DNA of 64,000 nucleotides from an uncultured archaeon (GCA_000965745.1 CP009479.1:380457-444456); one strand, 5' to 3'. Shown: positions 9,836 to 30,448, counted from the first letter of the stretch. A program made the numbers and translations. Notes: generated by a model from the letters alone, not told the origin.

Positions 9836-9907
9836 GGGCCGGTAGATCAGCGGTAGATCGCTTGCTTCGCAAGCAAGAGGTCTCGGGTTCAAATCCCGAC
9901 CGGTCCA
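9836..9907 (+). tRNA. tRNA-Ala (anticodon CGC), no encoded CCA
   Basis: Hand-folded cloverleaf: acceptor GGGCCGG/CCGGTCC with the G3:U70 alanine identity pair, D arm gatc-agcggta-gatc, anticodon stem cttgc/gcaag with loop ttCGCaa, T arm tcggg-ttcaaat-cccga, discriminator A. Confidence 0.9.
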
Positions 9908-9909
9908 TT
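9889..9909 (+). repeat. attL core: tRNA-Ala 3' end, 21-nt exact direct repeat of 27406..27426
   Basis: tcaaatcccgaccggtccatt is identical at both positions. Confidence 0.85.
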
Positions 9910-12782: not shown

Positions 12783-14657
12783 ATGGATAAATATTTTGAA
12801 GGGGGAATAAGAAGTATGCGAGAAATGGGCTTTTCTGAACTTATCAATGCACGAAAGGTCCTATCCAGGCCCATAATCGAACTGCCCATAAGAAATGAGG
12901 AGAGGCTATTCTATCATCCTGAAAAAAGGCTCAAAAGGTTCACCGGACGAACTGCAATTGCCTATGCCATAATACCGGATAGCGAAAGAGGCAAGTTCAG
13001 GAGAGAAGAATGCTCTCCCAAAGCCTCTTCCCTCATGGACTACATTCTCCATAAGGGAAACAGGAACGTGTCAATAACAGGAGTATCAGGGCAGGGTAAG
13101 AGCTATCTTACCACGCACCTAATATCGATATTCAGGGACAAGGAGACAATCATATTCTCATTCAAGCCGAATGATCATGAACTGCATCTTGGGATTCCGG
13201 TTGTGGATGCAAAGGAATGCCTACCCAACCCCTTCAGGGATGTAAACGCCTTCTCCGAGTCATACATTACCGCATTCTTCGGTGAGAAGACCTCATCGGG
13301 CATACAGCTTCAGCAAACTCCTGGATTCCTGCAGGAGATCGCCTCTGAAAGCAATACCTGGAAAGACTTCATGAAAAAACTCTTGGAAAGGAAGAGATCC
13401 GCATCCAAGAATCAGGTTGAGGCTCTGAACGCAATTGAGCAGAATGTAAAGAGCCTGATCATTGACAATATGGGAAGCGTGGTCCTGGACAATGGGAGCA
13501 TCGTTTTTGACTTCTCATCCCTCCCAACGAAACAGGCGCAGAATTTCTATGCCGAGCTAATGCTGAGGCAGATATACAGGGAAATGGAAGAGCGCAAGAG
13601 GGACGACGTTCTCATTCTGATAGACGAAGCTCATCGATTGACCAAGTCCTACCATACAATCCTTGATGTCATGTCCAGGGAGATAAGGGACAAGGGAATG
13701 CTCTGGATAATCACACAGAATCTTATCGACATACTGCCAGAAATGAGGGCGAATTTCGGTACAAAGTTCACTTTCAGGTTAGGAGATGCCGACCTTAACA
13801 TGCTTTCATACAACCCACTTATGAGATACGCTGTCGAAATACTGCAACCTAGGCAGTTCATAGACATAGAGTTCCCTGAAGGATCGTCATTCTCGCCGGT
13901 CTTCACCTACGTTTCGAATGGCCTTGAGCACAAGGAGACGCAAAAGGTCGCAGCGGTGGTATCTGAACCAAAGAGGGAAGTGGGAGTCGGAGGGAGAGGG
14001 GAGATTACCGACTACAGGAGGGAGGCCCTAGAAATCCTCAGCGAGAAAATGTCCTATGCAACTGAACCAAAGAGGGAAGTGGGAGTCGGAGGGAGAGGGG
14101 AGATTACCGACTACAGGAGGGAGGCCCTAGAAATCCTCAGCGAGAAAATGTCCTATGCAACCGAAATGGGAAAGATAATAGCCGAGAAATACGGCATCAC
14201 AAAGGACCAAGCCAAACTCAGGCTGAAATCAGCACTTGAGGAACTGAAGAACAACAACGAAGTTGGCAGAGTTAAGTATCTCAGGGATGGAAAGCCAATA
14301 GTTATGTATTATTCCAAGAGCCCAAATCTCTCCAATCTACATACTGGAATGCAGAGCCAGGTAGTCGGAATCCTGAACGATTTGGGAGTGAGCATCAACA
14401 GGATATCCACCACCGGAGAAAGAAGCGCATTTGACATTGAAACCGACTTCTTCATGGTCGAGATTGAGACAGGCCTGAAGCACAGCATGGAAGACCTGAA
14501 GGATAGGATAAAAAGCACTAACCTTCGTGTAATAGTAATAGTGCCTAACAAAGAGCTGGTAGACAAATACAAGGATCTAGGAGAGAATGTGTCAGTGCTA
14601 ACAATAGACTCTCTGGCCACTGAGATTGCTGAGCCACTGCATTCAGATAACTCCTAG
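12783..14657 (+). CDS. HerA/FtsK-superfamily P-loop ATPase with C-terminal wHTH-like and nuclease-like regions
   Basis: Walker A GVSGQGKSYLT, Walker B VLILIDEAHRL, IITQNLIDILPE..FTFRLGD (HerA/DUF87-like). C-terminus contains AFDIETDFFMVEIETGLK. Confidence 0.7.
   Translation: MDKYFEGGIRSMREMGFSELINARKVLSRPIIELPIRNEERLFYHPEKRLKRFTGRTAIAYAIIPDSERGKFRREECSPKASSLMDYILHKGNRNVSITGVSGQGKSYLTTHLISIFRDKETIIFSFKPNDHELHLGIPVVDAKECLPNPFRDVNAFSESYITAFFGEKTSSGIQLQQTPGFLQEIASESNTWKDFMKKLLERKRSASKNQVEALNAIEQNVKSLIIDNMGSVVLDNGSIVFDFSSLPTKQAQNFYAELMLRQIYREMEERKRDDVLILIDEAHRLTKSYHTILDVMSREIRDKGMLWIITQNLIDILPEMRANFGTKFTFRLGDADLNMLSYNPLMRYAVEILQPRQFIDIEFPEGSSFSPVFTYVSNGLEHKETQKVAAVVSEPKREVGVGGRGEITDYRREALEILSEKMSYATEPKREVGVGGRGEITDYRREALEILSEKMSYATEMGKIIAEKYGITKDQAKLRLKSALEELKNNNEVGRVKYLRDGKPIVMYYSKSPNLSNLHTGMQSQVVGILNDLGVSINRISTTGERSAFDIETDFFMVEIETGLKHSMEDLKDRIKSTNLRVIVIVPNKELVDKYKDLGENVSVLTIDSLATEIAEPLHSDNS
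13963..14160 (+). repeat. Perfect 99-bp x2 in-frame tandem duplication inside the ATPase gene
   Basis: 13963..14061 and 14062..14160 are identical base for base. They encode EPKREVGVGGRGEITDYRREALEILSEKMSYAT twice. Confidence 0.95.
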
Positions 14658-14849: not shown

Positions 14850-15608
14850 ATGATGATCATCTCTATCGCCAACCAGAAAGGAGGTTGCGGAAAGACAACT
14901 ACTGCAGCAAATCTTGGAGCATTGCTAGCGAAGAAACACAGGGTGCTCCTGGTTGACATCGACCCACAGGGAAATCTTACCACTCATTTTGGAATCAACA
15001 AGGCGGAACAGAAGCACACCATATACGATGTGATGCTCGATGGCAGGATTGAGGAAGCAATTATCCGAAAGGATGGAGTCGACATCGTGCCGAGCACCAT
15101 TGACCTGGCCGGGGCCGAGGTGGAGCTAACCGGAAAGATAGGGAGAGAGTATATTCTGGATAACGAACTCAAAAGAATCGCCAGGAAATACGACTATGTA
15201 ATCATAGACACCCCGCCCAGTCTGGGAATATTCACCATCAACTCGCTTGTTGCATCTGACTATGTGCTCATACCCGTGCAGGCTGAATTCTTCGCTTTGG
15301 AAGGTTTGACGCAACTCATGAGAGTCGTAGAACTCGTGAATTCAAGGCTCTCAAGAAACCTGAAACTGCTTGGAATGGTAGTAACTATGTTCAATTCCAG
15401 GACAAGGTCATCCAAAGAGGTCCTTGAGGAGGTCAGGAAACACTATACAAAGAACCTGCTTAAGACAGTTATACCTAGGAATGTGACAATAACCGATTCC
15501 ACCATGGCTGGCTCTCCTGTAGTGAGATATAGGAAATCTGCTCCTGCATCAAAGTCATATATGGCGCTTGCAAATGAAATTCAGAAAAAGCTAAAGGTGT
15601 CAAAGTGA
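14850..15608 (+). CDS. parA: ParA/Soj-type partition ATPase (small, no N-terminal HTH)
   Basis: Deviant Walker A NQKGGCGKTT, VIIDTPPSLG. 252 aa. Confidence 0.9.
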   Translation: MMIISIANQKGGCGKTTTAANLGALLAKKHRVLLVDIDPQGNLTTHFGINKAEQKHTIYDVMLDGRIEEAIIRKDGVDIVPSTIDLAGAEVELTGKIGREYILDNELKRIARKYDYVIIDTPPSLGIFTINSLVASDYVLIPVQAEFFALEGLTQLMRVVELVNSRLSRNLKLLGMVVTMFNSRTRSSKEVLEEVRKHYTKNLLKTVIPRNVTITDSTMAGSPVVRYRKSAPASKSYMALANEIQKKLKVSK

Positions 15609-15940
15609 AAGACCCTATAATGAGACTTAGACAAATTCAAGGGGAGGTCTATAAACTCCATTTAGATATGGTAAAGGCAGGTGGCGGATATGATAAACTT
15701 GCCGATTACATAATCAAACAGTCACAGGGAAAGAACTCTGAACAAGACCCTACTTTACATCTTGCTGCCGTTACACATAGCATTTTAGGGCTCATAGCAG
15801 ACTATAGCAAGTTTCTGAAAGCATACGACGAAGAGCATAGGAACCCAAACGACCCGAAATTTGTAGGAAGCGTGGGAAATTTAGTATTTTTCGCGAAGAA
15901 AGGTTGGCCTCCAAAATTCAAGGTAAGAAAGGTGAAATAA
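15605..15940 (+). CDS. Hypothetical protein between parA and the parB-like gene
   Basis: 111-aa ORF. Its start overlaps the parA stop (GTGA) and its stop overlaps the next start (TAATG), which suggests translational coupling. Confidence 0.45.
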   Translation: MKDPIMRLRQIQGEVYKLHLDMVKAGGGYDKLADYIIKQSQGKNSEQDPTLHLAAVTHSILGLIADYSKFLKAYDEEHRNPNDPKFVGSVGNLVFFAKKGWPPKFKVRKVK

Positions 15941-18949: not shown

Positions 18950-21043
18950 ATGGTGTTTTATATGGTTGATTCTTTGATGGAAAAAGGTGACCAAACTCAA
19001 AGAGGTGGCAATGGGCAAAGGAGATCATTAATCGAGGAGTTGCCAAGAATAGTCGACAGAGGAAAGAAGGAGGCACAGAAAATTCTTGATGGGCTTTCTA
19101 AGTCCCAGAGAGTAACTCTTCAGACAAACGAATTGGTGCTGCCTACAAAGGCCATCGGAGGGCTGACCAAGTTTACGGGGCAGACTGTAAGGACGGAAGA
19201 TAACAGTGAATTTCTTAATCGACTCATATACGGTGATAATCTGTTTGCCATGCAGGCACTTTTAGCAGGCGATCCTGAAACAGGACTTCCGTCAATGAGA
19301 GGCAGGATCGACCTGATTTATATTGATCCGCCCTTTGACAGCAAGGCGGATTATAGGACAAAAATACATCTTCCTTCCGTAGACATTGAGCAAAAACCAT
19401 CGGTAATAGAACAATTCGCATACTCTGATACTTGGAAAGACGGGACAAAGTCTTATCTGGAGATGATCGCCCCCAGATTGGTTCTAATGAAAGAACTACT
19501 GAGTGAAAAGGGTTCAATCTACGTGCATATAGATTGGCATGTTGGACATTATGTAAAAGTAATAATGGACGATATCTTCCAAAAGGAAAATTTCATAAAT
19601 GAGGTTGTTTGGAAAAGAACAAGTGCTCATAGCGATTCTGGTAGATATGGAATCAATAGTGACTACATATTATTCTATACAAAAACTTCTGAAAGGATCT
19701 GGAATCAGCAATACGAACCATATTCAGAAGAATACCTTGCGAGGTTCAGAAATGTTGACCCTGATGGGCGTAAATGGCAGGACGGACCGATAACGGCTAA
19801 AGGATTACAGGGAGGTGGTTATTCCTATGAATATAAAGGGGCCTATGGCTACTGGAGGTGTCCTAAATCAACCATGGAAAGACTTGACAAGGAGAACCGG
19901 TTGTATTTCACCAAGAATGGTGGGATTAGGATAAAGAGGTATCTGGACGAAACTCCGGGAATACCTATGCAGACCATTTGGACGGACGTTTTTGCTGTCA
20001 ATTCTCAAGCTCATGAAAGGGTAGATTATGTTACCCAAAAGCCGGAATCATTGCTGGACAGAATAGTAAAAACATCATCTGATGAGGGTTCTATTATCGC
20101 AGATTTCTTTGCAGGTTCTGGAACATTAGGAGCAGTGGCAGAGAAACTTCGAAGAAAATGGATTATGTGCGATTTAGGTAGACCTGCAAGTATGATCTCT
20201 CGAAAACGTCTTATCGACCAGGATTCCGGACCATTCCTCTACCAAACTATTGGAGACTACCAGAAAGAACAGTTTGAAAGATCGCAATTCAGACGTATAG
20301 GAGACCTTGCCCATGTTGTGATCAACCTATACGGTGCGCTTCCATTTCCGATGCAAGAAGGTACCCCCACTAATCTTGGCTACATCAAACAGAGTAAGAC
20401 TTTGGTGTTTGTTGACTCTCCCACAAAAATCACTGGTTATGCTACTCTTAAAAGGGCCCAAGAGCTCAGAGCCTCCTTCATGGGAGGATGGAGCAGAATA
20501 GTTGTTCTGGGTTGGAACTTCGAAACGGATATTGGTAAAATCATAGACGGCATAAACGATGATAAGCTCGAAGTACTGGTGATTCCCCCAGACTTGTTGG
20601 AGAAGTTAAAACACAAGGCTGACTACGAGAAACTCATAAAAGAAGGGAGCGTAAGATTCAGTTCTTTACAATACCTTGCTGTCAGACCAGTTATCAAAAA
20701 ATTAGCAGATGACGACACGGAGGAGTTGACAATTGAACTTGAGAATTATGTTCTTCTTTCCCCAGATGCATTACCACTTGACAAGGCAGACAAGGACAAA
20801 CTCGAAAAGATCATAGAAGAGGATCCTTTGAGTCTCGTTGAATACTGGAGCATTGACCCAGAATATGATGGAGAGATGTTCAGGAGCAAATGGCAGGATT
20901 ACCGGGAAAACCATGAAGAGTCCGCTAAGGTGGACCGAAAGGTAAAACTCCTTGTCCCCAAGATTAATGGAAAAAGAAAGGTCTGCGTGAAAGCAGTTGA
21001 TGTATTCGGATTCGAGAGCGTGACCGTTAAAGAGGTATTTTGA
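18950..21043 (+). CDS. mod: Type III R-M DNA methyltransferase (Mod), beta-class N6A/N4C MTase
   Basis: Motif IV LIYIDPPFDS precedes motif I FFAGSGTLGAVA. Overlaps the res start by 4 nt. Confidence 0.85.
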   Translation: MVFYMVDSLMEKGDQTQRGGNGQRRSLIEELPRIVDRGKKEAQKILDGLSKSQRVTLQTNELVLPTKAIGGLTKFTGQTVRTEDNSEFLNRLIYGDNLFAMQALLAGDPETGLPSMRGRIDLIYIDPPFDSKADYRTKIHLPSVDIEQKPSVIEQFAYSDTWKDGTKSYLEMIAPRLVLMKELLSEKGSIYVHIDWHVGHYVKVIMDDIFQKENFINEVVWKRTSAHSDSGRYGINSDYILFYTKTSERIWNQQYEPYSEEYLARFRNVDPDGRKWQDGPITAKGLQGGGYSYEYKGAYGYWRCPKSTMERLDKENRLYFTKNGGIRIKRYLDETPGIPMQTIWTDVFAVNSQAHERVDYVTQKPESLLDRIVKTSSDEGSIIADFFAGSGTLGAVAEKLRRKWIMCDLGRPASMISRKRLIDQDSGPFLYQTIGDYQKEQFERSQFRRIGDLAHVVINLYGALPFPMQEGTPTNLGYIKQSKTLVFVDSPTKITGYATLKRAQELRASFMGGWSRIVVLGWNFETDIGKIIDGINDDKLEVLVIPPDLLEKLKHKADYEKLIKEGSVRFSSLQYLAVRPVIKKLADDDTEELTIELENYVLLSPDALPLDKADKDKLEKIIEEDPLSLVEYWSIDPEYDGEMFRSKWQDYRENHEESAKVDRKVKLLVPKINGKRKVCVKAVDVFGFESVTVKEVF

Positions 21044-23967
21044 TGGTAAATGTCAAGTCTCCCGGAACAAGAGATGTACCGCTAAAGCTTGCGAAGAGGA
21101 TTACCGAACAAGCAAACGAGTTGTGGAAATCTGGAGAATTTCTTGAGAAAGTCGCGCCAATAACTCAGGAACTGCTTAAGTTCTGGGACCCTGATGGAAT
21201 ATTTGCTGATGAAAGAAGCATAAACTTTCATGATGGGCAGTGGCAATCGATACTGAATGTAATCTATGTGCACGAGGTCCTGAAACTATCCAGCGTTGGT
21301 GAGCTGTATGCTCAAATTTACTCAGAACTGCTGGCGCAAATGAACATGGCAGATCTCAAACAGGATAAATACGAACATCCAAAATATTGTGTAAAGATGG
21401 CAACAGGAACCGGTAAGACTTGGGTTATGGATGCTTTACTCATATGGCAATACCTTAACTCAAAATACGATGAAAATGGAAGTGAGAGGTTCTCAAAGAA
21501 CTTCTTGTTAGTGGCTCCTGGTATCATAGTCTATGAAAGACTCCTGGACGCTTATCTGGGAAAGCGAAGAGAGGACGGTAATAGGGACTTTGATCAGTCC
21601 GATTTCTGGAGATTTCAGAAACTCTTCATTCCACCTGTCCACAAGGATGCAGTCTTTGGCTTTATCCAGAGTTGTGTTTCTCAAAAAGAGGAAATAGGAC
21701 GAAAAGTCACCGGAGAAGGGCTAATAGGAATCACAAACTGGCATCTTTTGGCAGAGGATGAGGAAGAAGATGAACTGGAGTCTGCACTAGATAGGCCAGA
21801 TATAGCAGTAAATGAACTGCTCCCCATTACTCCTGGTACTTCCCAGGGCCATTCCTTGGAGGAACTTGACAATCAGTATATGAGAGGCCGGGAACTCGAC
21901 TACTTATCAAGTCTTCAGGACCTTGTCGTATTCAATGACGAAGCTCACCATCTTGGCGAGATGAAGAGGGCGGATCAGGTTGTGGAGAAGAAATGGCAGG
22001 AAGCACTGGACAAAATTGCAGAGATCAAGAAGGATCGTTTCATGCAAGTGGATTTTTCAGCAACACCGTACATTGTCACTGGTAGTGGACAAAGCAGAGT
22101 CCAGAATCATTTCCCACACATAGTGTCCAACTTCGAACTCGTGGATGCAATAAAAGAAGGACTGGTCAAAACTGTCGCTATTGACAAGAGGAAGGAGTTC
22201 GGTTCAATTCCTCTTGAGGACCTTGAGTACAAAGCAGAGCGAGAGGGCAAACAGGTTGCGAGTCTCTCCGATGGGCAAAAACTCATGCTAAGAGCAGGTA
22301 TGCAGAAATTGAACATACTTGAGGAAGAATTTACAAAACTGGACTCGACAAAGTATCCTAAAATGCTAGTCGTCTGTGAAGATACCAAAGTGGGCCCTCT
22401 GGTTATCACATTCCTTCTGCAGGAAGGCTACTCAGAGGACGATGTAATGGAAATCCACTCCACAAGGAAAGGCGATGTGAGCGAGGCAGAGTGGAAAGTG
22501 ATTGAACAAAGACTCTTCGACATAGACCGTCATAAGAAGCCAAAGGTGATTGTTTCCGTTCTAATGCTCAGGGAAGGATTTGATGTTAACAATATATGTG
22601 TTATAGTGCCACTTAGGTCCGCCTCTTCTTACGTTCTATTGGAGCAGTTAATAGGGAGAGGTCTCAGATTAATGTGGCGTGGACCAGACTACGATGATAT
22701 AAGAGCAGAAAATCGTGAGAAACTTCTAGTAAAGAAGGAAGAGCCAGATAGCTATATTGACATTCTAAGTGTAGTAGAGCACCCTAACTTCATCGAATAT
22801 TATGAAAGAGTCCTTGCCGGAATGGTGGGCAAGGTCAGTGAAGAACCAACAAAGAATAGAGTCGTTGGCGACCTTATCAAGGTAGGTCTCAAACCTAACT
22901 ACAGAGACTATGACTTGTTCTGGATCATCATATTGCAGGACAAAGAGGAAGAACTCGCGGTGCCTGACCTATCCATAAATAAACTTGAGCCATTCCAGAT
23001 GAGACTTGAGGATTTGCGTTCACTGGTCGGGCGAAAAGGTGATACGTTTTACAGCGAGGAATTGACAGTAAAGACAACTTTTGGCGAATATACTGTTACA
23101 GCAGACATTTTCACTGCAAAAAGCTACAATTCATTTATCCAGAAAGTGGTGAACGCAGTGTCAGTTATCCATGTCAATGCAAGAGGCAGGAAATCAAGGG
23201 ATTTTCCAGTCATGCAGGTTAATTCTGCCCTTATTGCAAAGCTCACGGATGAATACATCAGACACAAACTATTCGGGCAGGAGTTTGATCCATTAGTGGA
23301 TAATAACTGGCGCGTACTTCTTGTGGCACAGCAGAACTTGATCAAGCACATTGTAAGTAACATTGCACAGGCTGTTTATGATTCCATGAAGAATCTCAAA
23401 GTAAACGAGGCCAAGATCGTGAAAAAGTACTTCTCCGAGGTGCCTGAAATTCGAATAAGGGAAACATATGCCTTGAGAGCTGCAAAGAACATTTACGAGA
23501 AGATAGCCTATCCTTCACATGCTGGTGGGTTTGAAAAGGACTTTATCGAATTCATAGATTCTGATTCCAAAGTCAAGGCATTTGTGAAGATAAACGAATA
23601 CTACAACGACTTTGCAAATATCATTTATGTCAGGGACGACGGTCTTCTTGCTCACTACTACCCGGACTTCATGATAAGGGCTTGTGATCACATCTATCTT
23701 GTAGAAACCAAATCTGAAAGAGACATGAGCAACCAGAATGTCAAAAACAAGAGGATCGCAGCCATTGACTGGGTGGATAAAATAAATGAGCTCCCTCCAG
23801 AGGAAAGAATGAATTGTGATTGGAGCTACGTGCTCCTTAGCCAGAACACTTTCGAAATGATGAAAAAGCAGGGCGCGAATACCTGTGAGATACTGGAATA
23901 CACCAAACTCACCAAGGCAAAGGTGAGAGGTACACTAGGAGACTACATGGGATTCAAGGACTATTGA
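21040..23967 (+). CDS. res: Type III restriction enzyme Res subunit (SF2 helicase + PD-(D/E)xK nuclease)
   Basis: MATGTGKTW (motif I), FNDEAHHLG (DEAH), LREGFDV..., C-terminal YYPDF...YLVETKSE nuclease motif. 975 aa. Confidence 0.85.
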   Translation: MMVNVKSPGTRDVPLKLAKRITEQANELWKSGEFLEKVAPITQELLKFWDPDGIFADERSINFHDGQWQSILNVIYVHEVLKLSSVGELYAQIYSELLAQMNMADLKQDKYEHPKYCVKMATGTGKTWVMDALLIWQYLNSKYDENGSERFSKNFLLVAPGIIVYERLLDAYLGKRREDGNRDFDQSDFWRFQKLFIPPVHKDAVFGFIQSCVSQKEEIGRKVTGEGLIGITNWHLLAEDEEEDELESALDRPDIAVNELLPITPGTSQGHSLEELDNQYMRGRELDYLSSLQDLVVFNDEAHHLGEMKRADQVVEKKWQEALDKIAEIKKDRFMQVDFSATPYIVTGSGQSRVQNHFPHIVSNFELVDAIKEGLVKTVAIDKRKEFGSIPLEDLEYKAEREGKQVASLSDGQKLMLRAGMQKLNILEEEFTKLDSTKYPKMLVVCEDTKVGPLVITFLLQEGYSEDDVMEIHSTRKGDVSEAEWKVIEQRLFDIDRHKKPKVIVSVLMLREGFDVNNICVIVPLRSASSYVLLEQLIGRGLRLMWRGPDYDDIRAENREKLLVKKEEPDSYIDILSVVEHPNFIEYYERVLAGMVGKVSEEPTKNRVVGDLIKVGLKPNYRDYDLFWIIILQDKEEELAVPDLSINKLEPFQMRLEDLRSLVGRKGDTFYSEELTVKTTFGEYTVTADIFTAKSYNSFIQKVVNAVSVIHVNARGRKSRDFPVMQVNSALIAKLTDEYIRHKLFGQEFDPLVDNNWRVLLVAQQNLIKHIVSNIAQAVYDSMKNLKVNEAKIVKKYFSEVPEIRIRETYALRAAKNIYEKIAYPSHAGGFEKDFIEFIDSDSKVKAFVKINEYYNDFANIIYVRDDGLLAHYYPDFMIRACDHIYLVETKSERDMSNQNVKNKRIAAIDWVDKINELPPEERMNCDWSYVLLSQNTFEMMKKQGANTCEILEYTKLTKAKVRGTLGDYMGFKDY

Positions 23968-23992: not shown

Positions 23993-24157
23993 CTAAGCAG
24001 TACTCTTTGGAATGGTGTAGGAATTCTTCTCACCCACATAGGTATTGAAATTATTACCACACTCTGAGCATTTGTATCTTGAAACCTCATATACATTAAA
24101 CGCCCATTGTTTGAGAGGAGGATTCTTATTTTCCATGTTACAGACAGGGCACTTCAT
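23993..24157 (-). CDS. Zinc-ribbon protein, 54 aa, absent from the ORF track
   Basis: Hand translation: MKCPVCNMENKNPPLKQWAFNVYEVSRYKCSECGNNFNTYVGEKNSYTIPKSTA. Contains CPVC...CSEC. Lies downstream of the Phd-like gene on the same strand. Confidence 0.4.
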   Translation of the reverse strand: MKCPVCNMENKNPPLKQWAFNVYEVSRYKCSECGNNFNTYVGEKNSYTIPKSTA

Positions 24158-24183
24158 AACGAAATAGTAGAACTAACGCCGAC

Positions 24184-24366
24184 TTAAATTTGTTCCTGTA
24201 AAAACTCCCTTGCACTTCTGACCCCTTTCTTTATATCATCTTCACTTTTTCTTAATTGCTCCATCACACAATGGCTTTGAAGAGTTTCAATGGTAGCAAG
24301 AAGGCTATCCAGGTAGGATTTTGGTATGCTTATCAACCTGTCGTTGTGTTTTGCCATCAAGAACAA
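24184..24366 (-). CDS. Phd/YefM-like antitoxin fragment-like small protein
   Basis: C-terminal pattern LLATIETLQSHCVMEQLRKSEDDIKKG..SAREFL resembles the ETLEIL...DIKxG tail of Phd/YefM-type antitoxins. No RelE/YoeB-like partner was seen. Confidence 0.4.
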   Translation of the reverse strand: MFLMAKHNDRLISIPKSYLDSLLATIETLQSHCVMEQLRKSEDDIKKGVRSAREFLQEQI

Positions 24367-24393
24367 TAATACATATTCAGCTTTTAGTATCTA

Positions 24394-24870
24394 TTGGTAA
24401 GACTCCGGCTCAAATTCACCCCTAACCCCTCTTTGAGCCTCCGCCGATTACTATGTGCCCTTCGCTCGCCTGCACGCCGAGCACAGGACCCCATGCTTCG
24501 ACTCCAATCAAAATTCACCCCTAGCCCCTCTTTTGATTTACGTCTCGCACTCTTCTTCGAAGAGCCCCTCATTCGCCTTGCTCATTCAGGGTGGTGTCCT
24601 GTGCTCGCCGCTCGTGGTGTATGTGTGGTGTTAAACACCTTCGCTTCGCTTGGTGTTCCACACCACCCACCGCTAACGCTTACACCACTCGGTCTTGCTA
24701 CGCAAGACTTCCGGCTCGCTTCGGGCACATTATTCTCTCCTGCGGAGTGCAATTTTAGGGGAACAGGGGGAGGGGAATTTTTGACCGCACAATCTCGCTG
24801 CGCTCGGTGCGGGATAATATTAGGGGTTCTCGGTCCGTGCTCACTTCAACGATTCACAGATGGATAATAC
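24394..24870. other. GC-rich, repeat- and stem-rich non-coding island (candidate structured RNA or repeat element)
   Basis: Local G+C is clearly above the flanks. Two 36-nt direct repeats (24401, 24500), a G-rich partial complement (24756-24780), 12-bp perfect long-range complementarity (24478-24489 / 24596-24607) and several hairpins. The ORFs here translate to low-complexity strings. Confidence 0.45.
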
Positions 24871-24941
24871 AAAGCACTGCGACCAACCCTTTTGGGAAAA
24901 GGTAGACGAAAACAAAAATTATTAGAAAATAATGTAATAAC

Positions 24942-24990
24942 CACGTGACGAGGTTTGTATAACAAACCTGACAAACAGGTTTTATACAAG
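24942..24990. promoter_or_regulatory. Overlapping palindromes upstream of the DGQHR gene (operator candidate)
   Basis: CACGTG (24942-24947). AGGTTTGtataaCAAACCT (24951-24969). AAACCTGacaaaCAGGTTT (24964-24983). RBS-like aggtaggtga at 25004-25013. Confidence 0.35.
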
Positions 24991-25016
24991 AAACCAATTA
25001 AGAGGTAGGTGAAACA

Positions 25017-26129
25017 ATGAGACTTAGAGCACTTGAAATTAGTCAGAAGGATACCCAGTTCTACCTCTGCTCATTTAGAGCAAAAGATATCGTTGGTATC
25101 TATAAGGTAGATACATGGAGAACGGATAACAGGAATGGCTACCAGAGAGATGTTGTAATCAGTAGGGCAAGAGGGTTTGGAAGATTCATAAGAGATGGCG
25201 GTGTCTCGCCTTCTTCCATACTGCTAAATGTGAGAGAAAGTGGAGTTATATCTTACAAAGATGGTTATTTACAGATCCCAGACGAGACTCCATTATGGAT
25301 CGTAGATGGTCAGCACCGTGTCAAAGGGCTCAAAGAAATGATTGAAAATGATGGTCACATTGACATGGGAGAATTTGAATTCCCCGCAGTAATAATGAAT
25401 TACCAGAATCCTTATGAGGAGGCTAAGCAATTCGTCATCATTAACAGAACCGCAAAGGGTGTACGGTCTGATTTAGGTGAAAGATTCCTTCAAAGGGCTA
25501 TTGAAGAACAAGGTAAAATGAGTGTCATGGCCAGACAAGGGCTCCCTTCATCGATTCTTACCGGAGTAGAATGGAAAACAAGGGCTGTCAATATAACCGA
25601 CAGGATTAGCACCCTGGATACTTCTATATGGAAAGACCTGATTATATTTCCGAACGAGCCTAAAGGCGATAAACTGGTCAGTCAAAAAGCATTTTCAGAC
25701 TCACTGAGGCCAATTCTTAATGACCGACTATTTGAGAGACGTACAGACGATGAAATAACCCAGATTCTCATAAACTACTGGAATGCAGTCAAGGAAATTT
25801 GGCCCAGATGCTTCAGCGATCCAAGCTCTTACGTTCTTCAGAAGTACGCAGGGGTTTTTGCCGTTCACAAGTTGCTTCCAAAGGCAGCTCAGTTCTGCCC
25901 TACTAAAGGCGATAAAATTGTTCTTACTAAAGATTCTTTCCTGGTAATTTTTGAAAGACTTTCTCAGAAGGACTTGGGGGACGGCAAGAAGTTTGACGAG
26001 GAAATTTGGGCAAACAGAGGCAGATATGGAATGCTTGGTACAACAATGAAGTCCGTTTCCCTAATTACAGACGACCTGTCAGATGCGCTTGACAATTCTT
26101 TAGGATCGGGACAGGATATAGAACTGTAA
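25017..26129 (+). CDS. DGQHR-domain protein (DndB-like, ParB/Srx-fold)
   Basis: Literal WIVDGQHRVKGL motif and downstream QFVIINRTAKGV (FxxxN) motif, as in the DndB/DGQHR family. Confidence 0.8.
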   Translation: MRLRALEISQKDTQFYLCSFRAKDIVGIYKVDTWRTDNRNGYQRDVVISRARGFGRFIRDGGVSPSSILLNVRESGVISYKDGYLQIPDETPLWIVDGQHRVKGLKEMIENDGHIDMGEFEFPAVIMNYQNPYEEAKQFVIINRTAKGVRSDLGERFLQRAIEEQGKMSVMARQGLPSSILTGVEWKTRAVNITDRISTLDTSIWKDLIIFPNEPKGDKLVSQKAFSDSLRPILNDRLFERRTDDEITQILINYWNAVKEIWPRCFSDPSSYVLQKYAGVFAVHKLLPKAAQFCPTKGDKIVLTKDSFLVIFERLSQKDLGDGKKFDEEIWANRGRYGMLGTTMKSVSLITDDLSDALDNSLGSGQDIEL

Positions 26130-26146
26130 TTACCCCCTATTTCTAT

Positions 26147-27376
26147 TTGGAGGAATGTATGTCTTGTGATTTTATTTCTGAATTTCAAGTAACTGGCGAC
26201 AAAGTAGTAAATCCAAGAGAAGGAATAACTTATGAATTCAAGGAGAATTTTAACTGGGGAGGCAAAGAGAAATATGCCAAGATCATGGCTTCTTTTGCTA
26301 ATTCCACAGGTGGTTACCTCCTATTTGGCGTAAAAGATGACGGGCATATCGAGGGTCTCTCTAACAACAACTTTGAAGACCGCGACCCGGCAAATATCAG
26401 TTCATTCTTGAATTCCTTGTTCACTCCTGCAATACGGTGGGGCAAGTTCGTATGTGAACTTGGAGGATACAAGATCGGAGTCATCAAAGTCGAAGAGGCA
26501 ATAGAAAAACCAATTATATCATATAGGAACGGCCAAGAGGTGAAGGAAGGAGACATTTTCTTTAGGTATGCAGCTCAAAGTGAAAGAATTAAGTTTTCTG
26601 AACTGAAGTCGATCATTGAAATTGGAAGAAGGGTGTACGGAGAGAAGCTCCTCAAGAGTCTAAGAATGATTGTCGAGAAAGGTCCTGAATCTGTAAAACT
26701 GCTTGACCTGAACGAGTTGAAAGATGCAAAGAAAGATGAGATTTACTTCCTAGATGATAACTTTCCCGATTCGGAAGTAAGGGTACACAGAGCCTCAGAA
26801 AGCGAACAAACAAAGGGAGTTGGCATAAAAATAGTCAATGTTGAAGGTAAGGCGATGCCAATTACAATTAGGGAATTTGCAAACATAAGTTCAGAACTTA
26901 TTGTGCACGCCTTTCTTGATCAAGAGCTCCCTGCAAAATTTGATCCAATGGGCTTTGTGGAACGTCTCGCTTTCGAAACTAGCGGTTTGGTGCCTATGTA
27001 TTTTTATATAAAAGAGGCCAACTTAACAAGAGATGAGGCAGTTGAGCTTATTAAAAAAACAAAGTCTACCACTAGAGGAAGAACTACTATCCTAAAACGA
27101 TTGAGTGGTAAGGAATACGACTTCAGATCTTCAACATACAGCAACACACTTGATGACTTAATTAATGGTTCCTTGAGCATAAGTGATCTGCAAACCTCAA
27201 ATGTCAGGACCGTCTTGCAATCTATACGGTCTTGTTCAAAAGGCTTCTTGGTGCAGAACTGGAATAGGCTGAAGGACATAATGCAATACCTATATGATGA
27301 GTATTATATGAACCCGAAATTCAGGTCTGAGGTTAGATGGGCAATGTGTTTCATAGACTTGACCTTATTTTCATAG
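26147..27376 (+). CDS. AlbA_2 / Schlafen-like DNA-binding domain protein with uncharacterised C-terminal half
   Basis: N-terminal EGITYEFKENF...YAKIMASFANSTGGYLLFGVKDDGHIEGL matches the AlbA_2 (divergent-AAA/Schlafen) consensus pattern. Confidence 0.75.
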   Translation: MEECMSCDFISEFQVTGDKVVNPREGITYEFKENFNWGGKEKYAKIMASFANSTGGYLLFGVKDDGHIEGLSNNNFEDRDPANISSFLNSLFTPAIRWGKFVCELGGYKIGVIKVEEAIEKPIISYRNGQEVKEGDIFFRYAAQSERIKFSELKSIIEIGRRVYGEKLLKSLRMIVEKGPESVKLLDLNELKDAKKDEIYFLDDNFPDSEVRVHRASESEQTKGVGIKIVNVEGKAMPITIREFANISSELIVHAFLDQELPAKFDPMGFVERLAFETSGLVPMYFYIKEANLTRDEAVELIKKTKSTTRGRTTILKRLSGKEYDFRSSTYSNTLDDLINGSLSISDLQTSNVRTVLQSIRSCSKGFLVQNWNRLKDIMQYLYDEYYMNPKFRSEVRWAMCFIDLTLFS

Positions 27377-27405
27377 TCCGCGTAAGTATTCGCTTAATAT
27401 TTTAA

Positions 27406-27426
27406 TCAAATCCCGACCGGTCCATT
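27406..27426 (+). repeat. attR1: exact 21-nt copy of the tRNA-Ala 3' end
   Basis: Identical to 9889..9909. Confidence 0.85.
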
Positions 27427-28116: not shown

Positions 28117-28136
28117 TCAAATCCCGACCAGTCCAC
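28117..28136 (+). repeat. attR2: 18/20 copy of the tRNA-Ala 3' end
   Basis: tcaaatcccgaccAgtccaC compared with the tRNA sequence. Confidence 0.7.
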
Positions 28137-28240
28137 TTCAAGTTTACCGGGATATGCGAACAACTTTCAAGATTTACCCCCACCCTTGATTGTCTGCAGA
28201 AGCTCCATGCGGGATCACTTCAGCACCGGATCCAGTTCAA

Positions 28241-30158: not shown

Positions 30159-30178
30159 TCGAATCCCGGCCGGTCAAT
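30159..30178 (+). repeat. attR3: degenerate (17/20) copy of the tRNA-Ala 3' end
   Basis: tcGaatcccgGccggtcAat compared with tcaaatcccgaccggtccat. No tRNA body lies upstream. Confidence 0.5.
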
Positions 30179-30448
30179 GATATCTCACGGTCATAATTTT
30201 CAACAGAAAACCTCCAATCAATAGATTTCAACTTCTGTCCATCGCCCATAAACCCTTGATAGAAACAAACTGGAAAAGAGTGCCAATGAAATGGTCAATT
30301 CCTAATTCTGCCCTCCAGTTGTTTAATTCAGCTTATGGTTTATCTCAAGTCCGTGGTGTAGCAGCCTCTAGATATGCGAATATGAACAAAGTTATTGGTA
30401 TAACAATATGGATGCGTGCTAAGTAATCTCAATTCAAGAGTGAACAAC

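Follow-up and report, generated by a model that had tools for sequence, protein, structure and literature searches.

A recurrent DGQHR–Schlafen gene cassette at the end of an integrated Thermoplasmata element, possibly a split variant of Schlafen antiviral systems

At one end of a plasmid-like element integrated at tRNA-Ala in a Thermoplasmata archaeon, a gene for a DGQHR-domain protein is followed by a gene for a prokaryotic Schlafen protein, and the two recur as a cassette in other Thermoplasmata. The pair may be an undescribed split variant of the Schlafen antiviral systems, consisting of a ParB-like sensor or regulator and a tRNase effector, a reading that we hold tentatively and rate a little short of even. 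A preliminary description of the window (the whole 64,000-nucleotide stretch of DNA that was analysed) had proposed a two-gene defence or regulatory module; the recurrence of the cassette agrees with this, but the DGQHR gene is dispensable and the neighbouring R-M system is probably involved. The features of the locus are listed below; those between 24952 and 25016 were read from the sequence and the promoter/operator function is predicted.

18950–21043 (Mod) and 21040–23967 (Res), plus strand: Type III R-M system (Pfam N6_N4_Mtase, ResIII and RE_endonuc; PADLOC MTase_III and REase_III)
23993–24157, minus strand: small ORF from the ORF listing, 54-aa CxxC...CxxC zinc-ribbon protein (weak zinc-ribbon matches)
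24184–24366, minus strand: small ORF from the ORF listing, 60-aa protein
24370–24951, strand not assigned: conserved G+C-rich non-coding leader (the “structured island”), from blastn conservation
24952–25016, plus strand: putative promoter/operator of the cassette
24952–24968, plus strand: palindrome GGTTTGT-ATA-ACAAACC
24980–24987, plus strand: TATA-like TTTTATAC
25002–25012, plus strand: SD-like GAGGTAGGTGA
25017–26129, plus strand: DGQHR-domain gene, 370 aa, ParB/Srx-fold and DndB-like by profile scores and motifs
26159–27376, plus strand: Schlafen/AlbA_2 gene, 405 aa, with an unannotated C-terminal region; alternative TTG start at 26147
27386–27426, plus strand: attR-type repeat, a copy of the tRNA-Ala 3′ end, directly after the cassette

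The first gene carries all three motifs defined in PMC4619093: the QR pair at aa 43–44 (nt 25143–25148; GYQR at 41–44), DGQHR at aa 97–101 (nt 25305–25319) and FxxxN, here FVIIN, at aa 139–143 (nt 25431–25445). The literal DGQHR and FxxxN motifs had already been pointed out in the preliminary description, and all three are invariant among 37 homologues. The protein scores 115.6 bits against NCBIfam TIGR03187 “DGQHR domain” (cutoff 58.85, aa 5–289) and 58 bits against Pfam PF14072 DndB (cutoff 29.1), the latter across the N-terminal half only (aa 4–161), and by domain score and motifs it belongs to the DGQHR domain family that these two models describe. In Foldseek searches its AF2 model (pLDDT 91) gave weak matches to ParB-like N-domains, the best being Noc, PadC and the pNOB8 ParB N-domain (E 0.006–0.1, rmsd >11 Å), while the DUF262 profile gave no match to the protein even at E≤5. 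Within the cassette the dN/dS of the gene is 0.015–0.05, indicating very strong purifying selection. In other archaea, members of this subfamily are solitary genes in housekeeping surroundings where no target gene is apparent, and neither the nearest DGQHR gene beyond the cluster (L164, 74%) nor the distant ones in L009, L011 and L013 has a Schlafen neighbor.

Stand-alone DGQHR proteins are common in archaea, where they are routinely mistaken for products of phosphorothioation (dnd) genes. The window protein has the DGQHR domain and ParB/Srx fold in common with DndB and DpdB and aligns with the DpdB model over almost its full length (PADLOC 52.7 bits, aa 1–295). Its equivalog scores fall widely below the cutoffs: 18.9 bits versus 328 for DndB proper (TIGR03233; PADLOC DndB 15 bits), 55.3 versus 300 for DpdB (NF041060) and 46 versus 450 for the TIGR04172 equivalog. 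Dnd and Dpd families are absent from the 25 best-matching PADLOC or Pfam families for the other 49 ORFs of the window, and no dnd or dpd genes were found at the related loci examined, the scan covering the 64-kb window of a 2.23-Mb genome together with those loci. These scores and the absence of dnd and dpd genes lead us to reject membership of DndB or DpdB, and they bear out the earlier remark that the gene stands in the window without dndCDE or dpd genes. Unlike DndB and DpdB, the relatives of the window protein are solitary or Schlafen-paired, without dndCDE or dpdA–K.

The second gene almost certainly starts at the ATG at 26159, since all homologues begin MSCDF... and the database protein AKA48127.1 has 405 aa; the spacer to the DGQHR gene is therefore 29 nt and the protein 405 aa, in place of the 17 nt and 409 aa given previously. 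The database entries for the pair are AKA48126.1 and AKA48127.1. Its N-terminus matches Pfam SLFN_AlbA_2 (PF04326) with 71.8 bits (gathering cutoff 25.3) over model positions 1–117 of 118 (aa 25–148 of the 409-aa reading), and contains a catalytic-type motif, E21-x4-E26-x-K28 (nt 26219–26242), whose three residues E21, E26 and K28 do not vary across 30 members of the family at 22–87% identity. This agrees with the catalytic motif Ex4(E/D)xK of SLFN11 and prokaryotic Schlafens, and with the triad E17-D22-K24 of the tRNase CbCash. Foldseek matched the AF2 model (pLDDT 82.5) with probability 1.0 to 3lmm, 2kyy, SLFN5/11/12/13/14 and the SAMD9 tRNase over ~150–165 columns, with TM-scores that are low because only one query domain aligns. 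Domain score, catalytic motif and structural similarity all place the protein among the Schlafens, and the AlbA_2 domain is predicted to be a Schlafen-type nuclease domain, more than a binding module. The preliminary description was thus correct in recognizing AlbA_2, but its label of nucleic-acid-binding falls short for a domain with an invariant Ex4ExK.

The remainder of the Schlafen protein, which the preliminary description put at ~280 aa and could not assign, comprises ~230–260 aa and is just as resistant to annotation here. It gave no Pfam match in nine diverse family members at E≤5 and none in NCBIfam, PADLOC or PDB sequence-profile searches; with the whole model Foldseek matched only the N-terminal domain in the PDB and BFVD, and no PADLOC model matches the protein. 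The dN/dS of the Schlafen gene is 0.13–0.21, against the far lower values of its partner, with variability concentrated at aa 176–244 and 321–405 and the conserved parts at aa 31–175 and 245–320, and the protein P0023 is a mosaic.

The two genes are served by a single putative promoter region and, judging by the gene arrangement, form a conserved operon-linked cassette that is putatively co-transcribed. The 24952–25016 segment is conserved 5′ of the DGQHR gene in L001, L095 and L138, and its palindrome, which sits ~12 nt upstream of the TATA-like box, is short and shows partial, weak conservation in relatives. The same cassette is found in L001–L004, L015, L095 and L138–L141, in at least five different upstream and at least five different downstream contexts within the Thermoplasmata, so the preliminary description was right to treat the pair as a unit. 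In L001 and L016 a different Type III Res, with 25% identity to that of the window, occupies the same position upstream, while in L139 and L140/141 there is no R-M gene upstream and a transposase and an AAA_22 gene, respectively, are found instead.

A single lineage of Thermoplasmata accounts for the pairing. The paired DGQHR proteins that were compared share 89–99% amino-acid identity, a profile search of genome contigs with the Thermoplasmata alignment subset added one Thermoplasmata genome, and the adjacency could be one inherited accident. Within this lineage the two genes behave differently: between L001 and L138 the DGQHR genes have 96% nucleotide identity and their Schlafen partners 62%, so that selection appears to keep the arrangement of the pair while the Schlafen alleles swap. 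Exchange as free as this, with DGQHR held constant, speaks against a closely co-evolved interface between the two proteins. In L016 the DGQHR gene has been cleanly deleted; the 24952–25016 segment is kept directly before the Schlafen gene, the Schlafen ORF is open and the promoter–Schlafen unit is intact. Close Schlafen relatives (48–66% identity) also occur without DGQHR, and lone Schlafen genes are found in L142, L160 and L143. From these relatives and the clean deletion we take DGQHR to be an accessory rather than an obligate partner, and the deletion likewise argues that it is no essential antitoxin. No fused DGQHR–Schlafen homologue was found among 176 relatives. A candidate for a second, deeply divergent pair, P0028/P0087, was rejected: the gene after P0028 is no DGQHR gene, and the upstream side lies beyond the contig end. 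We found no paper on the pairing in the literature, in keeping with the preliminary description, which did not recognise it as a described system.

A profile of the C-terminal domain recovered 758 clusters at 50% identity, nearly always preceded by an AlbA2-sized N-terminus. Across this broad AlbA2+CTD family the co-occurrence of DGQHR and Schlafen that the preliminary description had looked to is absent: of 80 loci from metagenomes and 43 from genomes, one in each set has a DGQHR neighbor. The family is mostly embedded in R-M operons, and its recurrent partners are R-M and BREX genes. Immediate neighbors at more than 70 family loci include Methylase_S (HsdS; 17 of 94), N6_Mtase (7), HSDR_N (5) and N6_N4_Mtase (4), and those at ±2 include ResIII (7), SWI2_SNF2 (6), HSDR_N (5) and PglZ (3; n = 75). 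Family members are embedded in operons of the hsdM-hsdS-[X]-hsdR type, hundreds of them being single genes within R-M operons, and others lie beside Type II, Type III and BREX genes, with HpaII and BsaWI R-M systems adjoining family members in L005–8 and L143–5. These recurrent partners suggest that the adjacent Type III R-M system, which ends ~1 kb upstream of the pair, is part of the story: it is probably a functional neighbor of the cassette and more than mere context.

Bacterial Schlafen nucleases were shown to be antiviral effectors in 2025–2026, and more than half of defence-linked Schlafens adjoin restriction systems. A class of Schlafens with a C-terminal domain of no known identity beside R-M genes was noted in 2026 and is uncharacterised there (Cluster 4, PMC13462974); the window protein resembles it in the Schlafen N-terminus, the unannotated C-terminal domain and the R-M-rich neighborhood, and thus in domain architecture and context. 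The text consulted mentions no ParB-like or DGQHR partner gene. The closest precedent for the pairing itself is the DUF262–Schlafen fusion. DUF262 is a ParB/Srx domain related to DGQHR, with QR, DGQ[QH]R and FxxxN in common (PMC4619093), and 1.8% of prokaryotic Schlafens carry it as a fused domain; among these, EcoSlfn7 from E. coli UC4224 lowers T7 plating ~540-fold (Nat Microbiol 2026, PMC13056530). The fusion offers Rosetta-stone support for a functional pairing of DGQHR and Schlafen. Fusion and pair alike combine a ParB/Srx-fold domain with a Schlafen domain bearing Ex4(E/D)xK in a defence-island context, the antiviral effect being experimental for the fusion and the pair being known from its genes. 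The window pair is not itself a DUF262–Schlafen member: a stop codon and the 29-nt spacer separate two ORFs, the ParB-like part is of the DGQHR/DndB type (PF14072, TIGR03187) and gives no match to DUF262 (PF03235), the Schlafen has an additional ~230-aa C-terminal region and the host is an archaeon, so the resemblance is functional and architectural only.

Two other groups of systems offer looser analogies. In GmrSD, BrxU and SspE (DUF262 with a DUF1524 HNH domain) a ParB-like NTPase or DNA-sensing module controls a nuclease effector, as might be the case here, although the window effector would be a Schlafen RNase rather than an HNH DNase and the parts are split, not fused. PrrC is a latent anticodon nuclease encoded in the EcoprrI Type I R-M operon that serves as a back-up to restriction, and its fold is an ABC-ATPase with a C-terminal nuclease. 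It may be comparable as a latent tRNA-cutting enzyme in or beside an R-M system, the broad AlbA2+CTD family filling the same hsdS-[X]-hsdR slot, while its nuclease fold is unrelated to Schlafen and the window system is of Type III and ~1 kb away.

In the reading that we prefer, the effector would be the second protein, a prokaryotic Schlafen nuclease with an AlbA_2/Slfn N-terminus and intact Ex4ExK which, once activated, would cleave tRNA or another RNA and so shut down protein synthesis during infection, giving an antiviral phenotype. The fast-evolving, recombining stretches at aa 176–244 and 321–405 may set what it responds to. Its conserved partner, a predicted NTP- and DNA-binding protein of the ParB/Srx fold, would sense invader DNA, or DNA processed by the neighboring restriction enzyme, and license or tune the nuclease, perhaps by physical interaction; it may also repress the cassette promoter, as DndB does. 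DndB-like proteins, which bind ATP or GTP and are DNA-binding repressors, provide a precedent for such functions. The arrangement would be the split-gene counterpart of the DUF262–Schlafen fusion, and the cassette a further layer of defence backing up the neighboring Type III R-M system, on which it may depend. A more elaborate version joins all three into one immune unit, in which the Type III R-M system cuts invading DNA, the DGQHR NTPase loads on or detects the cut products or DNA lacking modification and then licenses the Schlafen tRNase, and swappable C-terminal modules set the specificity of the latter; taken jointly, we regard this as rather doubtful. Should it be true, the stand-alone DGQHR proteins that are widespread in archaea would gain their first function and archaea their first Schlafen defence system, and restriction would be tied mechanistically to Schlafen activation, a connection on which the papers of 2026 could only speculate. 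Confirmation of the pair would by itself extend Schlafen immunity to archaea and show that the DUF262–Schlafen logic exists in split form. The locus offers a testable role for stand-alone DGQHR proteins and a natural experiment on Schlafen switching, as the same family occurs with and without a ParB-like DGQHR partner, with a clean partner deletion, nuclease alleles swapped against a constant DGQHR and differing upstream restriction systems.

The occurrence of each gene without the other, and the L016 deletion that spares the promoter–Schlafen unit, would also be expected if the Schlafen+CTD protein were an R-M accessory similar to PrrC, held latent by the R-M enzyme until a virus inhibits restriction, and DGQHR an independent passenger that in one lineage came to lie between the promoter and the gene for the nuclease. 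The placement of the broad family in R-M operons and near Type II, Type III and BREX systems fits this explanation, as does the Type III Res gene that immediately precedes the locus in the window and likewise in L001 and L016. We nevertheless consider it unlikely: the cassette has no upstream R-M gene in L139 and L140/141, the DGQHR gene is strongly purified and kept through Schlafen allele exchange, and a validated defence protein joins Schlafen to DUF262, which is ParB-like, in one polypeptide. DGQHR could instead do nothing but set nuclease expression, as an autorepressor of the DndB type that senses no infection. DndB is a dimer that represses its own promoter by binding to palindromes there, and the partly conserved palindrome ~12 nt before the TATA-like box would suit such a role; loss of the repressor in L016 would be tolerable if basal nuclease activity is harmless. 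The invariance of the NTP-binding-type motifs QR, DGQHR and FxxxN suggests more than passive DNA binding, however, and with a palindrome this short and weakly conserved, and a subfamily whose solitary members elsewhere in the archaea have no evident target, we judge repression as the sole function improbable.

Two further explanations tie the genes to upkeep of the element rather than to defence. The presence of ParA (14850–15608), a resolvase and Orc1/Cdc6 on the element, the ParB-like structural matches of the DGQHR model, weak as they are, and the island with direct and inverted repeats that always accompanies the DGQHR gene would be consistent with a ParB-like centromere-binding or maintenance protein, with the island as its binding site and the Schlafen gene as unrelated cargo. 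This seems very unlikely, as the DGQHR gene lies 9.4 kb from parA, which has small downstream genes of its own, the island persists in L016 without DGQHR, related DGQHR genes occur in chromosomal housekeeping contexts without ParA, and the Foldseek matches are poor both in E value and in rmsd. Least convincing of all is a toxin–antitoxin-like addiction module that stabilises the element, with Schlafen as toxin and DGQHR as antitoxin. The pair is a two-gene operon with the nuclease second, and VapBC, ParE and PIN cassettes surround it at the element end in the window, L001 and L004; yet the DGQHR deletion and the close relatives lacking DGQHR keep the Schlafen ORF open, hundreds of family members are single genes in R-M operons, and a strongly conserved, enzyme-like protein of 370 aa would be atypical as an antitoxin. 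Classification as a Type II toxin–antitoxin module, in which no toxin occurs without its antitoxin, was rejected on the L016 deletion and the lone Schlafen genes of L142, L160 and L143.

Positions 9889–9909 and 27406–27426 hold identical 21-nt copies of the end of tRNA-Ala (3′ side), and an attR-type sequence of ~40 nt is also present 3′ of the cassette in L001–L004, L015 and L095. Within 6 kb there are also VapBC and a PDC-S27-type ATPase in addition to the Type III R-M system, an island context that favours the defence reading. Among viral contigs the DGQHR relatives were all distant and the Schlafen family had none, which gives no sign of a viral cassette. The pair is the final cargo ahead of attR and follows the R-M system and the non-coding island, as the preliminary description had placed it, while the structured state claimed there for the island is unproven: across six relatives RNAalifold predicted 38 pairs, of which only 2 showed compensatory changes, the covariation term was positive, and an Rfam search of the island gave no match. 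By blastn the island is common to L001, L015, L016 and L095 and partly to L138–L141, is modular with indels of ~100–300 nt, and travels with the cassette. The DNA of the small minus-strand ORFs (24009–24423) is conserved with L001 and L015, and the region of the 60-aa ORF with L138–L141, where a 58-aa minus-strand gene is called.

The two open reading frames described on the plus strand at 25017–27376 are both present, and what changes is the start of the second. The preliminary description gave a 17-nt spacer and a 409-aa second protein; ATG 26159 (MSCDF...), with a GGAGG-like site directly 5' of it, is the start in all homologues and in the database entry, so the intergenic spacer is 29 nt and the protein 405 aa. 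Both are annotated as hypothetical proteins (IX51_02335 and IX51_02340) in the 2.23-Mb genome recorded as 'uncultured archaeon', and the relatives nearest to them belong to Ferroplasma and Thermoplasmata. The pair and the small genes conserved with it on related contigs (L numbers) are:

25017–26129, plus strand: DGQHR gene (Protein 1), ORF of 370 aa
26159–27376, plus strand: Schlafen gene (Protein 2), AKA48127.1, 405 aa, starting at ATG 26159 (TTG 26147 in the mechanical ORF list)
23993–24157, minus strand: four-cysteine zinc-ribbon protein, 54 aa, conserved with the cassette in L001 and L015
24184–24366, minus strand: family-less 60-aa protein, conserved with the cassette in L001, L015 and L138–L141

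Within Thermoplasmata the pair is a unit. The Schlafen gene follows the DGQHR gene by about 30 nt in L001–L004, four contigs of Ferroplasma Type II that differ in their downstream flanks, and the arrangement recurs in L015 and L095 (Thermoplasmata MAG) and in L138–L141, four contigs that have three upstream contexts between them. Further pairs may exist, as we infer from matching the longest-contig sizes of a 26-member 90%-identity DGQHR cluster with those of seven Schlafen clusters. The DNA shared by blastn runs from 24009, right after the Res stop, to 27431, right past the att repeat, and takes in the non-coding leader as well as the small ORFs on the minus strand. The Res gene upstream in L001 and L016 is of Type III and has only 25% identity to that of the window (21040–23967 against L016 458–3007 and L001 1–1722). 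The same cassette therefore lies behind different Type III systems: one restriction system has replaced another, and the downstream cassette was retained.

The G+C-rich leader (24370–24951) carries two copies of a 34-nt motif at a distance of 99 nt (24401 and 24500), an inverted G-rich copy at 24751–24782 and many short hairpins. Indels among relatives are modular, approximately 100–300 nt in size, with 24424–24524 and 24651–24794 missing from L015 and 24452–24757 from L138. Rfam gave no match to this island, and in the alignment of relatives RNAalifold supports only 2 pairs by compensatory changes; an RNA, MITE-like repeats and a protein-binding array are all candidates.

The placement of the pair at the integrase-distal cargo end of an element is borne out by the att repeats and the gene content. 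The 21-nt 3' end of a tRNA-Ala gene (9889–9909) is repeated exactly at 27406–27426, 17.5 kb away, and degenerate copies lie at 28117–28137 and 30159–30179. The exact copies bound an interval that ends with the pair, so that the integrated plasmid-like element has the pair as its last cargo:

9836–9907: tRNA-Ala(CGC)
within the 17.5-kb interval: weak XerA-like tyrosine recombinase (NF040815, E 2e-10)
within the interval: VirB4/CedD-like ATPase
within the interval: ParA
within the interval: serine resolvase
within the interval: Orc1/Cdc6
within the interval: Type III Mod/Res pair
within the interval: small minus-strand ORFs and non-coding DNA, about 1 kb
within the interval, last cargo: DGQHR and Schlafen pair

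A VapBC pair and an ATPase_2/DUF234 protein (a match to PADLOC candidate PDC-S27) are situated between the degenerate copies, so that four progressively degenerate att copies bound the 17.5-kb element and then two tiny cassettes. Related Ferroplasma contigs also hold att-flanked toxin-antitoxin gene arrays (L001 5957–5997 and 8636–8675; L004 2654–2693 and 4759–4800), and the copies at one tRNA gene look like serial integration or a cassette array. The VirB4/CedD-like gene (12783–14657, 624 aa) contains a perfect 99-nt tandem duplication at 13963–14160 (2 x 33 codons). A 22-nt repeat of 82% identity (15619–15640 and 25016–25037) gives the ORF after parA (internal ATG 15620) and the DGQHR gene the same M-R-L-R start, probably by chance.

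Protein 1 passes the DGQHR-domain model TIGR03187 (115.6 bits, cutoff 58.85) and, over its N-terminal half only, Pfam DndB (58 bits, cutoff 29.1). It falls far below the equivalog thresholds for DndB (18.9 of 328 bits), DpdB (55.3 of 300) and TIGR04172 (45.8 of 450). The three motifs that define the domain are the QR pair, DGQHR and FxxxN (PMC4619093); the latter two had been recognised already, and Protein 1 has all three, none of which varies among 37 homologues. The best 25 PADLOC or Pfam families listed for the window's 49 other ORFs include no Dnd or Dpd family, in line with the earlier reading. Homologues at 35–46% identity are frequent in other archaea and occur in some bacteria, standing alone among housekeeping genes in all three contexts examined. 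Protein 1 therefore belongs to the DGQHR domain family; DndB and DpdB are ruled out by the equivalog scores. A Nitrosotenuis MAG (L013 3291–4505, 6001–7056) has a stand-alone homologue and, 1.5 kb away, a solo Cas1 gene, among small genes without annotation, a possibly casposon-like region.

The Schlafen-like N-terminus proposed for Protein 2 is confirmed by a Pfam SLFN_AlbA_2 match (residues 21–144, 71.8 bits) and by its predicted structure (pLDDT 82.5), in which residues 1–145 form an AlbA_2 fold. Foldseek matches it with probability 1.0 to the bacterial AlbA_2 structures 3lmm and 2kyy, to mammalian SLFN5/11/12/13/14 and to the SAMD9 tRNase domain. E21, E26 and K28 are invariant in 30 full-length relatives (22–87% identity) and form the Ex4(E/D)xK motif, which prokaryotic Schlafens conserve and which has a catalytic role in SLFN11; their counterpart in the cA4-activated tRNase CbCash is the triad E17-D22-K24. 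After the AlbA_2 fold come a long helix, then a small beta unit and finally an all-helical C-terminal domain (245–405, pLDDT above 90). The C-terminal region (CTD, approximately 230–260 aa), which the preliminary description could not assign, matches no family: nine diverse members gave no Pfam match even at E<=5, and its profile none among PDB sequences. Searching 1.84 billion representatives with this profile returned 758 50%-identity clusters, nearly all 420–530-aa proteins with the CTD after an AlbA_2-sized N-terminus; the architecture is a single coherent one, and the CTD is not promiscuous. Five members of approximately 500 aa (P0035, P0037, P0041, P0055, P0057) have an additional conserved N-terminal domain of about 85 aa (alignment A1; E-W-E-V-x-L-I-K-x-M ... 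R-P-D-R-x-I-N-x-x-R-I-S), which the Thermoplasmata proteins do not have.

The two genes have discordant histories. Cassette DGQHR genes share 89–99% amino-acid identity (dN/dS 0.015–0.05) and Schlafen genes 58–91% (dN/dS 0.13–0.21); between L001 and L138 nucleotide identity is 96% for DGQHR and only 62% for Schlafen, and the window and L138 show the opposite tendency. Schlafen divergence is concentrated in residues 176–244 and 321–405, and P0023 is a mosaic (26% and 74% identity respectively). A constant partner with a shuffled, fast-evolving effector or sensor is typical of defence loci, and argues against a tightly co-evolved interface.

The reading of the pair as a defence or regulatory module holds in part: it is a unit in Thermoplasmata, with essentially one apparent origin in this sample and a dispensable DGQHR gene. 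We tentatively favour, at slightly less than an even chance, a mechanism in which Protein 2 would be a latent Schlafen RNase, probably a tRNase, whose variable modules set trigger or substrate. Protein 1, as the conserved partner, would bind NTP and DNA, act as a DNA sensor and license or tune the nuclease, and the cassette would back up the neighbouring restriction system. ATP and GTP binding is known for DndB-like proteins. DUF262, the ParB/Srx-fold domain nearest to the DGQHR domain, has the same three motifs (PMC4619093); of 5,930 prokaryotic Schlafens, 1.8% carry it as a fused domain, and one of these, EcoSlfn7, reduces T7 plating about 540-fold (PMC13056530). These fusions lend independent support to a functional link. 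The literature on Schlafen with DndB, DGQHR or DUF262 yielded no DGQHR and Schlafen gene pair, as the preliminary description had supposed, and the pair resembles a split analogue of DUF262-Schlafen. DndB is an autorepressor that binds palindromes, and Protein 1 may also repress the promoter through the palindrome at 24952–24968; that DGQHR is a regulator only we consider distinctly unlikely. The confident Protein 1 model (pLDDT 91) weakly matches ParB-like N-domains (Noc, PadC, pNOB8 ParB; E 0.006–0.1), and a ParB-like maintenance protein with the island as its binding site is very improbable.

Protein 2 could instead be a restriction-modification accessory and DGQHR a passenger, which is unlikely. 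The families co-occur within Thermoplasmata and not in the broad family, where DGQHR is found in only 1 of 80 metagenome loci with full-length Schlafen+CTD relatives (mostly 26–34% identity). Type I specificity subunits dominate the immediate neighbours (17 of 94), with HsdM (7), HsdR N-termini (5), N6_N4 methylases (4), ResIII (4) and BrxL (1); the next genes out, 75 in all, include ResIII (7), SWI2_SNF2 (6), HsdR (5) and PglZ (3). In individual look-ups the gene followed an HpaII system (bacterial mobilisable element) and a BsaWI system (Thermoplasmata relative). This agrees with the known class of restriction-associated Schlafens with a CTD (Weickert et al., PMC13462974), within which the finding would be prokaryotic Schlafen defence in split form. 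A toxin-antitoxin module is extremely unlikely. Schlafen genes without DGQHR occur at 48–58% identity to that of the window (L142/L162, L160/161, L143–145), and L016 (66%) keeps leader and promoter, the latter joined straight to the start of a Schlafen ORF open to the contig end, with the first DGQHR codons degraded (ATG to ACG): the DGQHR ORF has been cleanly deleted. The nuclease gene can therefore be carried without DGQHR, and a role as essential antitoxin is ruled out. No Schlafen gene adjoins the DGQHR gene of L164 (74%), the nearest one outside the cluster.

Natural comparisons, with and without the partner and between swapped alleles, make the locus moderately interesting for how restriction-linked Schlafens are controlled, and it hints at what orphan DGQHR proteins of archaea may do. 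In L160 (561–3591) and L161 (383–1990) a DGQHR-less Schlafen relative (55% identity) has as its divergent partner a 535-aa protein with AAA_17/18 kinase-like and adenylosuccinate-synthetase domains, plus a DUF7002 protein, possibly a different partner set.
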